Source: an uncultured delta proteobacterium (lineage in GTDB: Bacteria > Myxococcota_A > Polyangia > Polyangiales > Houyiibacteriaceae). From it: a stretch of 64,000 nt of DNA. Each line of letters opens with the position of its first letter. Position 1 is the first letter of the stretch. Below, one piece after another: positions 4,056 to 12,529 of this stretch. The notes under the pieces are model-generated. The model worked only from the letters and a program-made list of their open reading frames with translations, did no database searches and was not told the origin of the DNA. Both the position numbers and the translations under genes were made by a program. The stretch covers positions 264,158-328,157 of the forward strand of contig CAWJII010000004.1 of NCBI GenBank assembly GCA_963842915.1, read 5' to 3'.

Positions 4056-6464
4056 ATGAACGAAGATATTCCTGAAAAGAACGAGATCCTGCAGGTTCTG
4101 CAGACACACGCTCCTCGTGCCATGCACGTCGGAGAGCTTTGCGGACGGCTCGATGTTCCGCGCAGTGCCAAAGACGAAGTCGTCCGGCGCCTCCTGTTGC
4201 TTGCTGACGAGAATCTAGTCACGGAGTTGCCAGGCCTGCGTTTCCGAGCGCTCGCCGCCTCCAAGAACGAGAAACGAGGGCGCGAGCAGGTCAAGGCCGG
4301 CCGCGGCCGCGGTCGCAAGGCCAAAGAGCGAGAGCTGGTGGCCCCGACGGTCACCCCTCCGATCGAAGGCCGTCTGACGATGACCCGCCAAGGCTACGGC
4401 TTCGTCAAGGTGTACGACGGAAGCGCCGATGTGTTCATCCCGCCGGATGCGGTGGGTCCAGCACTGCACGGCGACACCGTCCAGCTCCGAGCGAAGCCAT
4501 CGGCCAAGGGCCGCGACGGGCACATCGTCGGGATCGTGGAGCGGCGACTGAAGGAAGTGACTGGAACTTTGCATCCGCGAGGCCGCGGAATGAGCTTCGA
4601 GCCCGACGACGACCGACTTCCCTCGCCGATGCGCGTGGTCGGTGAAGTCCCGAAGTCCGTCCGAAAAGGCGACGTGACTCTAGCGGAGATCGTGACCTTC
4701 CCCCAGAGGCGCGAGGATAGACCCGAAGTTCGCGTCCTGGAGGTGCTCGGCGCCCAGGGCGTAGCGCGAATCGAAGTCGAGAAAATCAAGATCCGCGACG
4801 GCATCCGGGAAACGTTTCCCGATGACGTCGAGCTGGAAGCGGCCGCCCTCCCCGCCCGTGTGGATCGTGACGTCGCAAACCGTCGTGAAGACTTGCGGGA
4901 CGTCGACTTGGTGACGATCGATCCGGAGACGGCACGAGACCACGACGACGCAATCTGGGTCGAGCGCAAAGGCAAAGGCTTTCATCTCATCGTCGCGATT
5001 GCGGACGTGTCTCATTACGTTCCGGAAGGCAGTGCAATGGACCGCGAAGCGGTTAGCCGCGGGAACAGCGTGTACCTTCCCGATCGCGCGATTCCGATGC
5101 TCCCTCCGGAGCTTTCGACCAACCTTGCGTCTCTCGTGCCGAATCGCGACCGACTCTGCATGGCGGTCGACATGCACATCGACGACAAGGGGCAGGTCAC
5201 CTCGCACCGTATCTTCGAAGCGGTCATGCGGTCGCACGGCAAGCTCTACTACGAGGGTGTCGCGCGTGCTCTCGGGCTCACCAAGAGCGGCCCTCACCAG
5301 CCGTCCGCGGAGAAACGAATCGGGACCTTGAAGATCCTCCTCGACCTTTCTCAGCGTCTTCGCGCGCGACGCTTGAAACGCGGCGCTCTGGATTTCGACC
5401 TCCCAGAAGGCAAGATCGTCCTGGACGAACACGGAGAGCCCAAAGAGATCGTCCAGTCTCGCAAGGACCCGGGGATTCGGCAGGCCTACCGCATCGTCGA
5501 AGACATGATGTTGGTGACCAACGAAACCGTCGCTGCGCACATCAAGCGCCACGCTGCGCCCGGCGTCTTCCGTGTCCACGGGAAACCCGACCCGGAACGC
5601 ATCTCGATGTTCTGCCAAGTGGCGAAGTCGTTCGGATACGAGCTCGAAGAGGAGTCCGCGTCGACGCCGAAGCAGCTCAGCCAGTTCCTACGCCGAATCG
5701 AAGGGACCAACGAGGCATCACTGCTCCGGTATCTGCTCCTGCGGGCCATGCAGCAAGCGATCTACGACACCGACCCGACGACCGGGCACTTTGCGCTCGC
5801 GGCGAAGGACTACCTGCACTTCACCTCTCCGATTCGACGCTATCCGGATCTGATGGTGCATCGAGTCCTCCGAAGCATGATTCGCAAGGAGAGTCTCGAT
5901 GCGGCGGCGCTTCGACCGCGCCTGCAACGCCTCGCTGCGAAGGCCAGTGAATCCGAGCGGCGCGCCATGATCGTGGAGCGCGACGTGATGGACGTCTACC
6001 GAACGATCTACATGCAGGATCACATCGGAGACGAGTTCGACGGACGCATCTCGGGTTTCGCCCCGTTCGGGATCTACATTCAACTCGAAGACCCATTCGT
6101 CAGCGTCTTGCTGCCGTTCGAGCAGCTCGAAGACCGGTACGAGCCCGACGAGCTAGGCATCCGCTTGATCGGGGCACGCACCTCGAAGATCTTCACCATG
6201 AACGATCCTGTTCGGGTGCGGATTGAGGACGCAAACGTGCAGGCCCGAGACGTCGTCGGCTCGCTATTGGGGCATCAGCCCGCGGAGGCGCCGACAGAGG
6301 TGCAAAGAAGGCAGGGGCGCGCACCGCAGCAGCGCCGCGGCCCACAGAAGCAAGGACGAGCCGAACCAGCCCAGAAGCGCAGCTCGCCCAAGGGGCGGCG
6401 AGGCCCCCAGAAAGAACGGGGCGAGGAGCCGCGAAAACGACCTCGGCGCGCTCGCCGTAAGTGA
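4056..6464 (+). CDS. rnr: Ribonuclease R (RNase II/VacB family 3'-5' exoribonuclease)
   Basis: Cold-shock-like N-terminal domains; RNB catalytic region (DPETARDHDDAIWV, YLPDRAIPMLP, HFTSPIRRYPDLMVHR); S1 domain; Lys/Arg-rich tail. Confidence 0.92.
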   Translation: MNEDIPEKNEILQVLQTHAPRAMHVGELCGRLDVPRSAKDEVVRRLLLLADENLVTELPGLRFRALAASKNEKRGREQVKAGRGRGRKAKERELVAPTVTPPIEGRLTMTRQGYGFVKVYDGSADVFIPPDAVGPALHGDTVQLRAKPSAKGRDGHIVGIVERRLKEVTGTLHPRGRGMSFEPDDDRLPSPMRVVGEVPKSVRKGDVTLAEIVTFPQRREDRPEVRVLEVLGAQGVARIEVEKIKIRDGIRETFPDDVELEAAALPARVDRDVANRREDLRDVDLVTIDPETARDHDDAIWVERKGKGFHLIVAIADVSHYVPEGSAMDREAVSRGNSVYLPDRAIPMLPPELSTNLASLVPNRDRLCMAVDMHIDDKGQVTSHRIFEAVMRSHGKLYYEGVARALGLTKSGPHQPSAEKRIGTLKILLDLSQRLRARRLKRGALDFDLPEGKIVLDEHGEPKEIVQSRKDPGIRQAYRIVEDMMLVTNETVAAHIKRHAAPGVFRVHGKPDPERISMFCQVAKSFGYELEEESASTPKQLSQFLRRIEGTNEASLLRYLLLRAMQQAIYDTDPTTGHFALAAKDYLHFTSPIRRYPDLMVHRVLRSMIRKESLDAAALRPRLQRLAAKASESERRAMIVERDVMDVYRTIYMQDHIGDEFDGRISGFAPFGIYIQLEDPFVSVLLPFEQLEDRYEPDELGIRLIGARTSKIFTMNDPVRVRIEDANVQARDVVGSLLGHQPAEAPTEVQRRQGRAPQQRRGPQKQGRAEPAQKRSSPKGRRGPQKERGEEPRKRPRRARRK

Positions 6465-7795
6465 TCGTGCGCAGGCAGCGAACAAGCGTCGGAACAGCAG
6501 AGCTGATCGTTCGCAAGCGAAGCGGCGGGAAGCTCGAGAAGCTCGAGATTCAAGAGTTGATCTCCGGCTTCATGGATGGCTCAGTTGCCGACTACCAAAT
6601 GAGCGCGCTGGCGATGGCCGTCTACTTCCAGGGCATGGATTTCGACGAAACGGTCGCCATGACCCTCGCCATGCGGGACAGCGGCAGGGTTCTGAGCCTC
6701 GACGAGCTCGATGCCCCGAAGGTCGACAAGCATTCTACTGGAGGAGTCGGAGACAAGGTCAGCATCTGCCTCGCTCCCATCGTGGCAGCCTGCGGTGTGG
6801 CCGTACCGATGATGAGTGGGCGCGGGCTTGGTCACACCGGAGGCACACTCGACAAGCTCGAAGCGATCCCGGGGTTCCGCGTCGATCTCAGCGTGCGACA
6901 GTTCCGAACACAACTCCGCAAGATCGGCTGCGCGCTCATCGGGCAGACAGGTGACCTCGCACCGGCCGACAAACGACTCTACGCGCTTCGGGACGTTACC
7001 GGGACGGTCGAGTCGATCCCGCTGATCACCTCGAGCATTCTGTCCAAGAAGCTTGCCGAAGGGATCGACGCGCTGGTCTTGGACGTCAAGGTGGGCAGAG
7101 GCGCGTTCATGAAGACCGAGTCGGATGCCAGAGAGCTCGCTCAGTCACTGGTGCGGGTCGGAACGCTTGCTGGCAAACGGGTCTCCGCGCTGCTGACCGA
7201 CATGAACAGCCCCATTGGATACACGATCGGGAACGGGCTCGAAACCGCCGAGGCACTCGAAATTCTCCATGGCGAAGGGCCGGACGACTTGCGGGAGCTC
7301 AGTTACGAGCTGGCCGTCGAAATGCTGAGGGCAGCGGGCGTCGCGAAGACCAAGAGCCAGGCGCGACGACGCGTCGAGCTGCGGGTGAAGGACGGGAGCG
7401 CGCTCGAGAAGATGCGGCAAGTCGTCGAGGCCCAGGGGGGTGATCCTCGTGTGGTGGACTCGCCGGATCAACTGGCCTTGGCGCGCCACCGGTCGACGAT
7501 TCGCGCCACGAAGGATGGCTACGTCACCGGCATCGATCCCCTGGAGCTCGGGTATGCCTCGATGGGACTGGGCGCAGGCCGCAGCCGCGCGGAGGATGCC
7601 GTGGATTGGGGAGCGGGAATTCGCCTGCACGTCCAGCTCGGCGATCGGGTCCGCTCGGGCGACGCGCTCGCCACCTTATATGCGTCGCGGCCCGCGCTGC
7701 TGGGTCCGGGCAAAGACCGTGCAGCTCTCGCTATTCGACTCGCAAAGCGACGCCCTCCGGCCCGCGGACGCGTCATCGCAACGATTCGCCGTTGA
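6461..7795 (+). CDS. deoA: Thymidine / pyrimidine-nucleoside phosphorylase
   Basis: KHSTGGVGDK phosphate-binding motif, SGRGLGHTGGTLDKLE, LYALRDVT. GTG start overlaps the rnr stop (GTGA); exact start is uncertain. Confidence 0.9.
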   Translation: MIVRRQRTSVGTAELIVRKRSGGKLEKLEIQELISGFMDGSVADYQMSALAMAVYFQGMDFDETVAMTLAMRDSGRVLSLDELDAPKVDKHSTGGVGDKVSICLAPIVAACGVAVPMMSGRGLGHTGGTLDKLEAIPGFRVDLSVRQFRTQLRKIGCALIGQTGDLAPADKRLYALRDVTGTVESIPLITSSILSKKLAEGIDALVLDVKVGRGAFMKTESDARELAQSLVRVGTLAGKRVSALLTDMNSPIGYTIGNGLETAEALEILHGEGPDDLRELSYELAVEMLRAAGVAKTKSQARRRVELRVKDGSALEKMRQVVEAQGGDPRVVDSPDQLALARHRSTIRATKDGYVTGIDPLELGYASMGLGAGRSRAEDAVDWGAGIRLHVQLGDRVRSGDALATLYASRPALLGPGKDRAALAIRLAKRRPPARGRVIATIRR

Positions 7796-9158
7796 TCAAG
7801 CAGCCGTCATCCGCGGGCAAGGTGATTTGCGCGCGGAGCTCACGGTACCCCGGCGAATCTACGTAGCTCGTGTCGGGGAAATTGGAGCCCGCGGCATAGC
7901 GTACGCCAAGCTCTCGAATGAAGTCGGTGCCGCTTGCCTCGTCCAGAGCAGCAAGGACGCGCGACGCGCGTACTGGATGCGTCTCTTTGTCCCAGTCGGA
8001 CTGTGCGTCGCTGATCGCCAGCAGAAGCGTGCTCTTCCCACCAGTGGCGCGCCGAATCCTGACGTCGGTTTCCAGCGCAAACGCCACCCCTGCCCAGTAC
8101 ACGCGCTGATAGGCTTGGGTCCGATTCATGCTGCGGCTCTCGTCGGCCAATGAGCGACCGGTACCCGAATGCCGGCCGCGTTCGAAACCTTCGCGGATAC
8201 GCTTCCAAGCCCGCACGCCGCTCTGCAGGCCGCATCGCGCCCGCAGAACCTCTTGTAAGTACGTCGCTATTCCTTCGGATAGCCAGCGGTCTTGCACCCG
8301 CACGCGGGGAAGCCACAGATGCGAGAGCTCGTGAACTGCGACCCAATCCGATTCGAGCTCAGCCGCGTTGCTGTCCAACGAGGGAAGGAGAAGAATCGAC
8401 GAGCCGCCACCTCTGCGCAGCATCCCGAACGCGACCTGCTCACCCGGTGCATCTACCGGAACGATCACGAACTGCACATGATCGCGAGGGAATCGACCGC
8501 CGACGGACGCGCTGGTCTGGACGGCGCGAGAGAGCCAACGGCGAACGTCGATGTCGACTGGCCATGCGCCGAGACGCGCGACATCAACTTCGGTGTTGGC
8601 CAACGAAAACGCTTGCTGGTCAAACACCCCTAACACTCCGAAGGTCTCGACGAAGAAGGCGCTTCGCTCCGGCAGGTAGGCGCCGTTGGATCGTGACCAG
8701 GGCAACGAGACCTGCCCTTCACCGGGAAGTCGGAAGCGAATCGATGCGCTGAGCTCGCGGGGAAACGGATCGGGGCGCCAGAGCCACTGGGTCTGGGACA
8801 CTATCCTGGCGGATGAATCCCCCAGTCGCGTTGGGCTGCGTTCGAACTGGGCTTCGTACTCGACGCAGGCGGGCGCCGATACCCGACTCGACAGGATTCG
8901 ACCCTCCTTCGTTTCCAAGGGGACGCCGTCGACCCAGGCGCCCCGCAGCCGTGATCCGGCGCTCCCATCCATCGGAACCAAATCCGCCGGGGCCATGCCT
9001 TTGAAGCATGCATGAACTCTCGCAGCGCCAAGGTTGTCAAAGATTGTAACCCGGTAGTGAGCAATCGCACTCGATTGCGGCTCATCTGGAGGGACATCTA
9101 CCCTGTGCGCGCAAGCAACGAGGCAGAGCAGCCCGGCGATTCTTCCAAAGCCCATCAT
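7773..9158 (-). CDS. Gluzincin metallopeptidase lipoprotein (M1/M61-like)
   Basis: Lipobox LVAC; HELSH zinc motif followed by WLSEG (third-ligand Glu context as in the WLNEG of the M1 family). Confidence 0.7.
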   Translation of the reverse strand: MMGFGRIAGLLCLVACAHRVDVPPDEPQSSAIAHYRVTIFDNLGAARVHACFKGMAPADLVPMDGSAGSRLRGAWVDGVPLETKEGRILSSRVSAPACVEYEAQFERSPTRLGDSSARIVSQTQWLWRPDPFPRELSASIRFRLPGEGQVSLPWSRSNGAYLPERSAFFVETFGVLGVFDQQAFSLANTEVDVARLGAWPVDIDVRRWLSRAVQTSASVGGRFPRDHVQFVIVPVDAPGEQVAFGMLRRGGGSSILLLPSLDSNAAELESDWVAVHELSHLWLPRVRVQDRWLSEGIATYLQEVLRARCGLQSGVRAWKRIREGFERGRHSGTGRSLADESRSMNRTQAYQRVYWAGVAFALETDVRIRRATGGKSTLLLAISDAQSDWDKETHPVRASRVLAALDEASGTDFIRELGVRYAAGSNFPDTSYVDSPGYRELRAQITLPADDGCLINGESLR

Positions 9159-9424
9159 GATCTAAGCCGCTAGAATCCATGGGGTATTTGCTCCGGATCG
9201 CCAGTGCAATCGAGGCACGAATCAGACGAAACATCGGGGCGCGACCGACGTAGAGGATATCATGACCCATGCTTCGCTCTCGGATTGCGACCAGGTAGCG
9301 CTTTCGCTAGCGTGGCTGAGCGGGAAGCGGGGAAATGGGATTGGTCCCAGAAGCCGCGTTGCATCGCCGGAGAGCCGTTTGAATGCTCCCGATGCTCTGA
9401 CAAATAAATAGAGGGTAAACAAAC

Positions 9425-9703
9425 ATGAACTCAGCACTCAAGCACACGATCATCGCGATGGCGACCGCGGCACTCAGCGTGACTGCAGGATGCAAGTCGG
9501 ACGATGGTCCGGAAGCTGCCGAAGCTACCACGGGCGCCGAGACTGCTGCGGCCGTCGAAGAAGGTGCTGCGGAAGCTTCCTGTGGCGAAGGTAGCTGCGG
9601 CGAAGGCAGCTGTGGCGGAGCCAAGGACGCTGCGAAAGACGCCACGGGCGATGCTGCGGAAGCCTCCTGTGGCGAAGGCAGCTGCGGCGGCGCTAAGAAG
9701 TAA
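9425..9703 (+). CDS. Candidate RiPP precursor: small lipobox peptide with repeated [EG][AG]SCG motifs (HvfA/bufferin-type metallophore-like)
   Basis: 92 aa; signal/lipobox LSVTAGC; EASCGEGSCGEGSCGG and EASCGEGSCGG blocks (5 motif Cys); GAGGG about 9 nt upstream of the ATG; lies directly upstream of the DUF692 gene. Confidence 0.7.
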   Translation: MNSALKHTIIAMATAALSVTAGCKSDDGPEAAEATTGAETAAAVEEGAAEASCGEGSCGEGSCGGAKDAAKDATGDAAEASCGEGSCGGAKK

Positions 9704-9748
9704 GCGAGCCGGATCGCGCTTCCCTGCAAGGGGCAGCACGATATTTGG

Positions 9749-9784
9749 AGCCGCGGCGGCATTTGTCGCCGCGGCTTGTTTTTT
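9749..9784 (+). terminator. Intrinsic terminator/attenuator-like hairpin between precursor and maturase genes
   Basis: AGCCGCGGCG-gcatttgt-CGCCGCGGCT perfect 10-bp GC-rich stem followed by TGTTTTTT. Confidence 0.6.
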
Positions 9785-9796
9785 ATCGGGACAAGG

Positions 9797-10663
9797 ATGA
9801 GTCGGAACCTCGGCGGAGAGAACAAGAGAGCAGTCACGGGAATCGGCCTCGGCTTGCGCTACGACCTCGCAACCGAGCTGCTCGATCGTCAGCCGACGAC
9901 GGTTTCATGGCTGGAGATCCACCCGGAGAACTACGTGAATCGAGGCGGCCGCTACCAGGAGATCCTCGACCTGGCGCGACGAGATTGGCCCATCGTCACC
10001 CACGGGCTCAGCACTTGCCTGGGCGCCCCCGAGCCATTCGACGCGAGTTACCTGCGCGAGCTCCGGGGGTTCCTCTCTGACCTCGAGATCCCTTGGCACA
10101 GTGAGCATCTCTGTCTCGGCGGAGTCGATGATCGTTTCTTCCACGACCTGCTTCCCCTTCCCTTCACCGAGGAGGCGGCGCAAATCGCATCCCAGCGGCT
10201 GATCGAAGTCAGAGACGCGATTGAACTGCCCTTGGCTTTGGAGAATGCGAGTTACTACGCGCCACAGTGCGAGGATGGCTTGGCGGAGGCCGACTTCGTG
10301 GTCGATGTCTTGGAGCGCGCTGACGCAAAGCTGCTTCTCGACGTCAACAACATCTACGTGAACAGTCGCAACTTCGATTTCGATCCCAAAGCGTATATCG
10401 ACAAGATTCCGGCGGACCGAGTGGTGCAGATCCACGTCGCAGGTCATTTCGTTCGCGAGGACGGGCTGCGCATCGACACCCACGGCGAACCCGTTCGGGA
10501 CGAGGTCTATCAACTGCTCGACTACACGCTCAGAAAGGTCGGTCCCGTTCCCGTCTTGCTCGAGCGGGACAACAACGTGCCGCCCCTCGACGAGCTTCTC
10601 GCTGAAGTCGACGAGCTTTGGGCAATCTATCGCCGCGCCACGGAGGGCGAAGATGCTGGCTGA
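9797..10663 (+). CDS. DUF692 / MNIO (multinuclear non-heme iron oxidative) family enzyme
   Basis: GIGLGLRYDL, WLEIHPENY, THGLS, WHSEHLC, DLLPLPFTEE, ALENASYY, LLLDVNNIYVN, IHVAGH: the typical DUF692 TIM-barrel signature. ATG 9797 is preferred over TTG 9776, which lies inside the hairpin. Confidence 0.88.
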   Translation: MSRNLGGENKRAVTGIGLGLRYDLATELLDRQPTTVSWLEIHPENYVNRGGRYQEILDLARRDWPIVTHGLSTCLGAPEPFDASYLRELRGFLSDLEIPWHSEHLCLGGVDDRFFHDLLPLPFTEEAAQIASQRLIEVRDAIELPLALENASYYAPQCEDGLAEADFVVDVLERADAKLLLDVNNIYVNSRNFDFDPKAYIDKIPADRVVQIHVAGHFVREDGLRIDTHGEPVRDEVYQLLDYTLRKVGPVPVLLERDNNVPPLDELLAEVDELWAIYRRATEGEDAG

Positions 10664-11384
10664 CCAGGCCAAAGCCATGCAACGGGTTTGCTTCGGCGCC
10701 GAACCATCAGAGGCAGACCTCGAGCTATTGGGATCGCGGGAACGCTGGCTAGTCTATCGAGAGCTCGTCCAGAACAGGCTCGTTCAAGTGATCGAAGTCG
10801 CCCTAGCGCGCACCCGAACAGCGATTGGAGATGAGGCCTTTGGGCGTACTGTCTCCGACTGGCTCGGCACGGGCGGCCCCAGGACCCGATACCTGCGCTA
10901 CGTGCCGAGCGAGCTAGCGGATTTCGCGATTCCCATCTGGCGCGGCACCGAAGCGCCCTGGGTTGCCGAGCTAGCGTGCTTCGAGATCGGCAGCTGGAGC
11001 GTCCGGCACGCACCCCAGGACCCCAAGCCCGAAGCTGAGTTCGCCTTCGACCGACGGCCGGTGCTCAGCGAGGCAGTCGACCTCGTCCGCTTCGAATACC
11101 CAGTCCAGAAGAGACCTAGGCCAGCTGCCGGCTATGAACCCGAACCGACCTTGCTCTGCATCTATCGCGGCGCCGACCATCGGGCGCACACGCGGGCGCT
11201 AAACCCTCTGGCTGCCGACCTGCTCGATGCTTGGAAACGCGCTGACGAAACCGTTGCAGACTCCGTTCAACGCATAGCCAAAGCCCACGGCACCGAGATA
11301 GGCCCGGCTTTCGTGGAGAAACTCTCCGCCCTCATCGCCGACTTCGTTGAACGCGGCGTCATCCTCGGCGGAAGCGACGCCTAG
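10653..11384 (+). CDS. DUF2063-type partner protein of MNIO enzymes (HvfC/BufC/MbnC-like role)
   Basis: Overlaps the DUF692 gene by 11 nt. N-terminal WLVYRELVQNRL...ALARTRTAIGDEAF pattern is typical of DUF2063. Confidence 0.72.
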   Translation: MLADQAKAMQRVCFGAEPSEADLELLGSRERWLVYRELVQNRLVQVIEVALARTRTAIGDEAFGRTVSDWLGTGGPRTRYLRYVPSELADFAIPIWRGTEAPWVAELACFEIGSWSVRHAPQDPKPEAEFAFDRRPVLSEAVDLVRFEYPVQKRPRPAAGYEPEPTLLCIYRGADHRAHTRALNPLAADLLDAWKRADETVADSVQRIAKAHGTEIGPAFVEKLSALIADFVERGVILGGSDA

Positions 11385-12529
11385 TAGCCTTCGACCTTGC
11401 TGATGATTTCGTTCATGATTTCGCGGGTGCCGCCACCGATGGGGTAGAGGCGCGCATCGCGGTAGAGTCGTTCGACGACGTACTCACGCATGTAGCCATA
11501 GCCGCCATGGATTTGGACCGCCTGGTCACAGACGCTCGAGCACATGTCGGTCGCCGTGTTCTTTGCCATCGCGGCCAGAGAAGGCGTTTGTTCTCCGTTG
11601 AGAAAGCGCGTGACGCACTCGCCGGTGAGGGCGCGGGCGGCGGCGATCTGGGTCGCCATGTCGGCGAGCTTGTGGCGAACGACCTGGAAGCCAGAGAGCG
11701 ACTTGCCGAACGCATACCGCTGCTTGGCATAGTCGACCGACTCTCGGTAGGCGAGCTCGGCAATGGCGACGCACTGGCCCGCGAGCATCAGGCGCTCGGT
11801 GACGAAGTTGGTCATGATCATCAGGAAGCCGGCACCTTCTTGACCAATGAGGTTCTCTAGGGGCACACGGCAGTCCTCGAATGCGAGCTCGGCCGTGTCG
11901 CTGGCCCACCAACCGGTCTTCTTGAGCTTGCCCGCTACACTGAAACCGGGGCTGTCGCTGTCGATGATGAGCATCGAGATGCCACCGTGGCCCTCGCCTC
12001 CCGTGCGAACGGCGGTGGTTACGAAATCCGCTCGCGTTCCCGACGTGATGAATGTCTTTGCGCCGTTGACGATGTAGTGGTCACCGTCGCGGACCGCCTT
12101 GGTCGCAATGGCTGCCACGTCGCTGCCCCCACCAGGCTCCGTGATCCCCAGGGCTGAAACCTTGTCGCCTCGGAGCGTCGGTCGCACGTAGCGCTCTTTG
12201 TGCGCATCGGTGCCAAACTTGACGATTGGTGGCAGCGCGATCCCATGGCTCCCAAGGCCCACGCAGGTCCCGACCGACTTCCCGGCGAGCACCATTTCCT
12301 CGGCGGCCACCAGTACGTGACTGAGATCTCCCCCGTCACCGCCCAGCTCCTCGGAATATCCGGTCCCGAGAAAGCCGGCCTCGGCCGACTGCTGATACAG
12401 CTCACGGGGGAACTCGTTTGCTTCTTCCCAAGCAAGCGCATGCGGCGCAATCGCATTGGCTGCGAAGCGCCGCACCTGCTCACGCAGCGCGCGATGCTCG
12501 TCTCTTTCGAACAGATAGCTCCTCACCAA
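11381..12529 (-). CDS. Acyl-CoA dehydrogenase
   Basis: ALGITEPGGGSDVA, YIVNGAKTFITSG, QIHGGYGYMREYVVERLYRDARLYPIGGGTREIM. Start is TTG 12529 or GTG 12526. Confidence 0.9.
   Translation of the reverse strand: MVRSYLFERDEHRALREQVRRFAANAIAPHALAWEEANEFPRELYQQSAEAGFLGTGYSEELGGDGGDLSHVLVAAEEMVLAGKSVGTCVGLGSHGIALPPIVKFGTDAHKERYVRPTLRGDKVSALGITEPGGGSDVAAIATKAVRDGDHYIVNGAKTFITSGTRADFVTTAVRTGGEGHGGISMLIIDSDSPGFSVAGKLKKTGWWASDTAELAFEDCRVPLENLIGQEGAGFLMIMTNFVTERLMLAGQCVAIAELAYRESVDYAKQRYAFGKSLSGFQVVRHKLADMATQIAAARALTGECVTRFLNGEQTPSLAAMAKNTATDMCSSVCDQAVQIHGGYGYMREYVVERLYRDARLYPIGGGTREIMNEIISKVEGY

Follow-up and report, generated by a model that had tools for sequence, protein, structure and literature searches.

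The contig CAWJII010000004.1 of an uncultured delta proteobacterium (assembly GCA_963842915.1; Polyangiales, Houyiibacteriaceae) was found to harbour a three-gene operon whose smallest gene is, by its sequence and context, an HvfA-like precursor gene of the Buf_EGKCG/oxazolin family. Such precursors give rise to peptides that are synthesised by ribosomes and modified after translation (RiPPs). The other two genes code for a multinuclear iron oxidase (MNIO) and its HvfC-type partner. The stretch analysed, called the window here, comprises 64,000 nt (positions 264,158 to 328,157 of the forward strand of the contig), and coordinates count from its first letter. The mature product is likely to be a lipid-anchored, cysteine-modified, Cu(I)-binding peptide, an oxazolin-type member of the DAG-RiPPs. 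Gene identity, gene context, conservation of the lipobox, variation in motif copy number and an intergenic hairpin are the observations on which this model builds. The principle of a lipid-anchored metallophore peptide was already known, and the peptide of the window is a new variant of it from uncultured soil myxobacteria.

The precursor gene and its operon

The precursor gene (9425..9703, forward strand, stop codon counted) encodes 92 amino acids. The open reading frame (ORF) was confirmed, and its translation is exactly the sequence quoted in a first-pass annotation, in which it had been presented as the precursor of a metallophore-type RiPP. This assignment is borne out by a passed HvfA-family model and by genes of the HvfB and HvfC type directly downstream. 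The precursor matches NF050137 (KCGExKCG_twice, HvfA family oxazolone/thioamide-modified RiPP metallophore) over residues 55-89 with 21.3 bits at a cut-off of 19.5, a narrow margin. The cut-off of NF050188, the equivalog model for full-length HvfA, was not reached (17.7 versus 95 bits). A Pfam search of the precursor gave no match at E ≤ 0.01 and hence no DUF2282; DUF2282-like precursors were seen only beside distant alphaproteobacterial MNIOs.

The second gene (9797..10663, forward strand) codes for an HvfB-type MNIO maturase of the DUF692 family, with a full-length match of 305.8 bits to PF05114. Its best NCBIfam models are those of the HvfB family (298 bits) and BufB (270 bits), both under their equivalog cut-offs. 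Translation probably starts at ATG 9797, which is conserved in related loci; TTG 9776 was rejected as a start because it lies inside a terminator stem (see below). The third gene (10653..11384, forward strand) overlaps the MNIO gene by 11 nt and encodes the HvfC-type partner, composed of a DUF2063 N-terminal domain and NGO1945_C. It matches PF09836 and PF22106, as well as the HvfC model NF050145 with an E-value of 5e-27, under the equivalog cut-off. Neither the MNIO (N-terminus MSRNLGGENKRAV) nor HvfC (N-terminus MLADQAKAMQRV) has a hydrophobic signal region, and both are therefore expected to act before export of the peptide. A convergent acyl-CoA dehydrogenase gene follows 3' of hvfC.

Related loci were all found in Polyangiales, Sandaracinaceae and other Polyangia metagenome-assembled genomes. 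The closest of these, L001 (CAVQUI010000003.1), has an MNIO that is 96 % identical to that of the window. An hvfC gene follows the MNIO gene in 54 of the 59 Polyangia loci, most exceptions being contig ends, and the order precursor-MNIO-HvfC was observed in all 49 Polyangia loci with a readable upstream region.

The precursor itself has 197 homologous proteins at E ≤ 0.01. Over codons 1-30 (9425-9514), amino-acid identity in 351 locus pairs is 83-94 %, and synonymous codons agree in 61-87 %. As the amino acids are more alike than the synonymous codons, purifying selection is indicated for the 9425 frame; the precursor ORF is more than a chance ORF and is selected at the protein level. A Shine-Dalgarno-like AGAGGG (9410..9415, forward strand), read from the sequence, is located 9 nt 5' of the ATG, and a purine-rich GAGG block is retained at this position in related loci.

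Conservation of the first 30 codons is also high in comparison with the remainder of the operon. The signal peptide and the following CKSDDGPE (83-94 % amino-acid identity) are more conserved than the MNIO (50-100 %) or HvfC (45-94 %), and synonymous codons are more alike here (0.61-0.87) than in the MNIO gene (0.47-0.69). These codons may harbour a recognition element for HvfC, or may be under constraint at the nucleotide or translation level. Three ORFs overlapping the precursor gene (9307-9837 on the reverse strand, 9431-9739 on the reverse strand and 9504-9800 on the forward strand) were rejected as high-GC artefacts, as conservation tracks the 9425 forward frame. Such long overlapping ORFs are typical of high-GC repetitive DNA, and these are without independent support.

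Cysteine motifs and their copy number

The precursor contains six cysteines (residues 23, 53, 58, 63, 82 and 87), of which the last five are arranged in two motif blocks. Block 1 (EASCGEGSCGEGSCGG, residues 50-65, 9572..9619, forward strand) holds Cys53, Cys58 and Cys63. Block 2 (EASCGEGSCGG, residues 79-89, 9659..9691, forward strand) holds Cys82 and Cys87 and is followed by the tail AKK. The two blocks agree with the first-pass annotation; the spacer between them, given there as 16 amino acids, is AKDAAKDATGDAA (residues 66-78) and thus 13 amino acids long. The DNA encoding the motifs is repetitive, as had also been noted: within block 1 the 15-nt unit TGYGGCGAAGGNAGC occurs twice in tandem, at 9581-9595 and again at 9596-9610, and 9652-9689 repeats the 38 nt of 9565-9602 with 95 % identity. 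The mature peptide of ~70 residues would be strongly acidic, with a net charge of about -10.

The number of core Cys per block was counted in 118 homologues. The commonest architecture is two blocks of two (2+2), found in 64 homologues, followed by a single block of two (20 homologues) or four (11 homologues). The 3+2 form of the window is rare (6/118). The forms 2+3 and 3 each occur in five homologues, 3+3 in two and other architectures in five. Core Cys total two to six per homologue and are odd in number in 18 of the 118. Expansion and contraction of motif number through the DNA repeats, previously raised as a possibility, is supported by comparison of the orthologues, whose counts step by one CGEGS unit. 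From the next relative (P0002, 93 % identical) exactly one GEGSC unit is absent.

Clade-wide, the residue before the core Cys is Ser in 417 of 448 cases and Lys in 10, and Gly follows the core Cys in 412 of 448. The E-G-x-C-G frame and the spacing of the HvfA/oxazolin motif are kept, but with EGSCG for EGKCG. A literature search for EGSCG or CGEGSCG returned unrelated growth-hormone papers only, and neither CGEGSCG nor MNSALKH is present in the supplements of the DAG-RiPP preprint or the MNIO landscape paper. Longer precursors of 94-145 amino acids with up to ~14 or more Cys were seen in loci L032, L042 and L056. These have looser motifs (GEASC, GEAAC, EGGC) and keep the lipobox.

Lipobox and predicted membrane anchoring

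Residues 1-22 of the precursor (MNSALKHTIIAMATAALSVTAG, 9425..9490, forward strand) form a signal peptide, with a consensus of at least 90 % at most positions in 120 sequences. Lys6 is followed by an uncharged hydrophobic stretch of 16 residues up to V-T-A-G-C23. The first-pass annotation had described the signal as ending in a lipobox-like TAGC, and this description is supported by the pattern match and by the homologues. The lipobox T-A-G-C is encoded at 9482..9493 (forward strand); Cys23 (9491-9493) is the predicted site of diacylglyceryl and N-acyl modification, and Lys is found at position +2. A PROSITE PS51257-type pattern, {DERK}(6)-[LIVMFWSTAG](2)-[LIVMFYSTAGCQ]-[AGS]-C, was used as the criterion for a lipobox and matches at Cys23.

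Among the 120 homologues listed, 119 have the lipobox Cys at the equivalent position. The sole exception, P0083, is a truncated protein whose N-terminus was called from an internal Met, yet it retains TAAC. The homologous N-terminus is in essence MNSALKHTIIAMATAALS[VM]TA[GA]C-KSDDGPE. Its Cys lies 23 residues after the MNSALK start, and 116 of 118 homologues have CKSD as their mature N-terminus. The Cys is retained in more distant precursors as well. In 20 of 20 diverged Polyangia precursors, encoded upstream of MNIOs of 50-62 % identity, [GA]C closes the hydrophobic region, the endings being GVGC, AMGC, AYGC, VGGC, VAAC, SAC and TAC, although the signal peptides themselves are diverged (MNTGLKNKLL..., MNTKLKTQLV..., MDSKLRAQVL..., METKDALKKK...). 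In contrast, DUF2282 bufferin precursors encoded by alphaproteobacterial MNIO loci in the same scan have AxA-type sites without such a Cys. A Cys that stays fixed in place despite turnover of the signal sequence is as expected of a functional signal peptidase II (SPII) site. Judged from this conservation, the lipobox is almost certainly functional and the precursor very likely lipid-anchored to the membrane.

The residue at +2 bears on the membrane to which the peptide would be sorted. Lys at +2 is the mark of inner-membrane lipoproteins in M. xanthus, where 8/12 such proteins have it, and a signal sequence with Lys at +2 sent mCherry to the inner membrane (PMC3222651). By analogy the peptide of the window may, on reasonable though weak grounds, be retained in the inner membrane. 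In other Polyangia clades the mature N-terminus is CAKK or CGGG, and sorting may differ there.

Intergenic hairpin and upstream DNA

A terminator scan revealed an intrinsic-terminator-like hairpin between the precursor and MNIO genes (9748..9786, forward strand), with a 13-bp GC-rich stem, a 4-nt loop and a T-run. The hairpin was found in all 28 related loci folded. In a 26-sequence alignment of the helix 99.4 % of cells pair, with some compensatory and wobble changes, while slid-partner controls are all far lower (35-63 % paired). The T-run is only ~10-25 nt from the MNIO start, so that hvfBC must be transcribed by read-through. The hairpin is a probable attenuator. An excess of precursor transcript produced by way of a terminator is a layout familiar from other RiPP operons. 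The stem GCCGCGGCGGC/GTCGCCGCGGC (9748-9777) is near-invariant though synonymous sites are ~50 % diverged, and the loop varies freely. For termination alone, such strong conservation of the stem sequence would not be required.

In 29 loci, among them some without a gene divergent from the operon, strong DNA-level conservation extends over the ~200 nt upstream of the precursor ATG (9225-9424). Within this region a candidate promoter of the extracytoplasmic function (ECF) sigma type, GAAAC-N16-CGTA, is located at 9228..9252 (forward strand), ~170 nt upstream of the ATG. ECF promoters have a general AAC/CGT pattern. In the 29 loci, some of which lack the divergent peptidase gene described below, GAAACATC and CGTA do not vary, nor does the spacing between them. 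A scan of the window for GAAAC-N15-17-CGTA gave one match where 0.68 are expected by chance, which is not significant, so that the case for this promoter motif is one of conservation. No second copy of the motif, which might mark an autoregulated sigma gene, was found in the window, and a scan for the sigma-70 consensus over 9000-11600 gave no match.

Further invariant upstream blocks are ATTGC, GCTAGCGTG (9306-9314), GGGATTGGTCC and GTTGCATC. A structured 5' leader was considered and rejected, as RNAalifold on the 29 leaders gave a consensus fold of -7.3 kcal/mol with little covariation. An Rfam search of 9100-9850 at permissive E-values gave nothing near any gathering score. In view of the lack of an Rfam match and the weak consensus fold, the upstream blocks are read as promoter or operator DNA, not as riboswitch-like elements.

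A linked M61/M1-like peptidase

Divergent from the precursor gene lies a gene (7773..9158, reverse strand) for a protein of 461 amino acids, a candidate accessory gluzincin resembling M61 and M1 peptidases. Its N-terminus is lipobox-like (LLCLVAC16). The zinc site HELSH-X13-SEG is shared by 87 of 88 full-length homologues. The GAMEN motif of M1 aminopeptidases is absent, the aligned position being GEQVA. The AlphaFold (AF2) model has a pLDDT of 86.6, and the top Foldseek matches are the M61 structures 7xyo (an aminopeptidase of Myxococcus fulvus, E 1e-16), 4fgm and 8j9c, followed by M1 enzymes. Together with the zinc site, these matches fit the thermolysin-like fold with an N-terminal beta-domain that is typical of this group, in which a Glu downstream of HExxH is a zinc ligand. 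The match to Pfam M61 (PF05299) scores 17.6 bits, under the gathering score of 22. By sequence and predicted fold the protein is a distant relative of M61 and M1 peptidases, not a filed member. All of its homologues are Polyangia proteins that have no annotation and no Pfam domain.

The peptidase gene is divergent upstream of the precursor gene in 20 of the 30 near-clade loci, and the same placement was found for two independently fetched homologues of 40-43 % identity. In Sandaracinaceae-type loci, in which the flanking genes differ, it is instead located directly 3' of hvfC on the same strand (L034, L037, L040, L043, L052 and L057, at about 5600-7150, forward strand). In L037, L040 and L057 the gap between the hvfC stop and its start is 3-4 nt, or the two genes overlap by 4 nt; the encoded protein again begins with a lipobox-like segment. 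That the peptidase gene accompanies hvfABC in two different orders speaks for a functional connection. However, about one third of the near-clade loci have no such gene or a deletion in it. In L001 a deletion of ~1 kb inside the peptidase gene (L001:3100-3155; window 7894-8948 absent) is flanked by DNA that is 93-94 % identical to the window, and hvfABC is intact. This natural knock-out shows that the peptidase is dispensable. Among distant loci without the peptidase, no shared gene was found 3' of hvfC.

Sandaracinaceae-type loci also harbour, after the cluster or after the peptidase gene, a gene for a conserved secreted protein of ~215 amino acids with the motif …AQ[ST]R[DE]F[QE]IRNDGGSRIQF… (L033:6637-7287, L037:7208-7846, L043:7142-7822 and L052:7016-7690).

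Proposed mechanism and alternative explanations

The chemistry, lipidation, localisation and bound metal of the proposed product are modelled by homology on HvfA and on NedA of Neisseria dentiae. According to this model, the HvfB-type MNIO together with HvfC would oxidise the five core Cys, each in an S-C-G context, in the cytoplasm to copper-binding heterocycles, presumably 5-thiooxazoles as in oxazolin, with a mass change of -4 Da each. The modified peptide would then be exported via Sec. Lgt would add diacylglycerol to Cys23, LspA (SPII) would cut off residues 1-22 and Lnt would N-acylate the new N-terminus. The product would be a triacylated acidic lipopeptide of ~70 residues, in which two thiooxazole clusters are carried on a flexible Ala/Glu/Gly tether, and would chelate Cu(I) at the membrane surface in the periplasm. 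The terminator hairpin would cause precursor transcripts to outnumber the enzyme transcripts. A flexible tethered metal-buffering module, as put forward in the first-pass annotation, is a plausible description of this putative peptide.

Several findings weigh against this model. The precursor is only barely over the cut-off of NF050137; the HvfB and HvfC matches remain under equivalog cut-offs, with a BufB score near that of HvfB; and no DoxX/HvfX gene, frequent though not universal in the family, was seen in the cluster. EGSCG replaces EGKCG, and among characterised members none appears to have Ser before the Cys. The odd number of modifiable Cys, five, does not fit a model of one Cu(I) per pair of heterocycles. 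The lipobox has Thr at -3 where Leu is canonical. Finally, the rule for Lys at +2 derives from 8 of 12 proteins of a different myxobacterial order.

Of the alternatives considered, the one that survives best, though still rather unlikely, regards the anchored form as an intermediate. The M61/M1-like lipoprotein peptidase would cut the tether and so free soluble thiooxazole peptides, one per block, or would recycle them. It is favoured by the linkage of the peptidase to hvfABC in two independent arrangements, by the lipobox-like N-terminus that both proteins share and by the zinc site HExxH-X13-xEG in combination with the absence of GAMEN. Furthermore, M61 enzymes prefer Gly and Ala, and the Ala/Glu/Gly tether is rich in these residues. 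On the other side, the peptidase is gone from about one third of the near-clade loci, including L001, with hvfABC intact; the near-clade linkage can partly be explained as plain synteny; and a blocked N-terminus makes a poor substrate for an aminopeptidase. An extended form of this idea is more doubtful still. In such a four-part Polyangia system, of a kind not known so far for MNIO metallophores, a dedicated, anchored M61/M1-like peptidase would process or shed the lipid-anchored thiooxazole peptide, for example as one soluble unit per Cys block, and the signal peptide with CKSDDGPE might double as the recognition sequence for HvfC.

A soluble metallophore, periplasmic or secreted, is an improbable product. 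In this case signal peptidase I (SPI) would cut the signal peptide, for instance after ALS18 or TAG22, and Cys23 would serve as an additional ligand for the metal or as a redox cysteine. In favour are the cleavage of HvfA by SPI (PMC11252979) and the small residues A-L-S and T-A-G near the hydrophobic end, which could form a weak SPI site, and Thr at -3 of the lipobox points the same way. However, the Cys always stands right after [GA] at the hydrophobic end in at least five diverged types of signal peptide and never in an S-C-G context, and the SPI-type bufferin precursors of the same data set have no such Cys. Moreover, a lipidated oxazolin has been demonstrated experimentally (PMC13056109). 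The least probable explanation, an unmodified Cys-rich, metallothionein-like lipoprotein that binds metal through its thiolates while the MNIO and HvfC are inactive or serve another substrate, could draw on the ~2-3 Cu(I) bound by unmodified HvfA (PMC11252979), on the Ser-for-Lys change in the motif and on the enzyme matches under equivalog cut-offs, but it is at odds with the precursor-MNIO-HvfC order in 49/49 readable Polyangia loci, with the retention of the Cys-Gly context that characterised members require (Gly after 412/448 core Cys) and with the lack of any other candidate substrate gene nearby. A lipid-anchored, modified and Cu(I)-binding peptide is therefore the preferred explanation.

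Lipid-anchored RiPPs and the Polyangia variant

Lipidation had been called unusual for a metallophore-type RiPP in the first-pass annotation, a view that is now outdated. DAG-RiPPs, named as RiPP-lipoprotein hybrids in a recent study (PMC13056109; preprint November 2025, PNAS March 2026), include a subset of oxazolins and bufferins that carry SPII signals. In that study NedA, an EGKCG peptide, was produced with NedBC in E. coli and shown by mass spectrometry to be triacylated and modified at three Cys (3 x -4 Da), and copper sequestration at the membrane was proposed (PMC13056109). Lipoprotein signals had also been predicted in ~16 % of Buf2 bufferins in the paper that describes the Buf_EGKCG/oxazolin family (PMC12452194). 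Only in 2025-26 were lipid-anchored RiPPs established, from two examples expressed in E. coli, one of the chryseobasin and one of the oxazolin type. For the oxazolin of nontypeable H. influenzae, the gene order hvfA-hvfB-hvfC had been described together with the chemistry of HvfA and its binding of Cu(I) (PMC11252979). The HvfA modification has since been reassigned from oxazolone/thioamide to 5-thiooxazole (bioRxiv 10.64898/2026.06.05.730506 and 10.64898/2026.07.17.739211).

The present finding opens no new principle. The Ser-type motif, the clade-wide lipobox of Polyangia, the attenuator hairpin and the linked M61-like lipoprotein were not found in the literature searched, nor was any mention of a protease in MNIO metallophore gene clusters. 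Every readable precursor of the MNIO lineage of the window in Polyangia has a lipobox, which makes anchoring the rule in this clade and not a sporadic variant. The natural variation of the clade comprises two to six modifiable Cys, Ser for Lys before the modified Cys, which would alter the side chain on the heterocycle, and the presence or absence of a linked lipoprotein peptidase among the genomes. Such differences could help to establish what the MNIO and HvfC recognise, the number of heterocycles needed per copper ion and whether anchored metallophores are released at all.

Comparison with known systems

Methanobactin (MbnA/MbnBC) is likewise a Cu(I)-chelating RiPP in which Cys is oxidised by an MNIO and a partner protein. 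It differs in that its leader is not a signal peptide, in its oxazolone/thioamide chemistry and in its dedicated export and uptake genes. The MbnB model matches the MNIO of the window only weakly (26 bits versus a cut-off of 325). The bufferins Buf1 (DUF2282) and Buf2 with BufBC are closer, having MNIOs of the same large sequence cluster, DUF2063 partners, Sec-exported precursors, Cys-derived thiooxazoles and a role in periplasmic copper buffering (PMC11626156, PMC12452194). Bufferins, however, are folded domains with four or six conserved Cys, whereas the precursor of the window consists of low-complexity repeats.

HvfA resembles the window precursor in its length of ~95 amino acids with a Sec signal, its paired CGExxCG motifs and the gene order hvfA-hvfB-hvfC, and Cu(I) binding would be expected by analogy. 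HvfA is cut by SPI and soluble, has three AEGKCGEGKCG repeats and an N-terminal disulfide between C38 and C43, and is encoded with a DoxX-like HvfX gene. The peptide of the window, in contrast, carries a lipobox, has Ser where HvfA has Lys before each Cys and is without a disulfide pair, and its operon has no DoxX gene.

NedA with NedBC shares an SPII lipobox signal that is followed by repeated xGxCG motifs (PMC13056109), and its gene adjoins those of an MNIO and a DUF2063 partner, both without signal peptides. NedA has three EGKCG motifs and originates from a betaproteobacterium, whereas the acidic peptide of the window, from Polyangiales, has five EGSCG/EASCG Cys in a 3+2 arrangement. Compared with NedA, the window locus lacks a DoxX gene, and a conserved attenuator hairpin as well as a linked gene for an M61-like lipoprotein peptidase are present.

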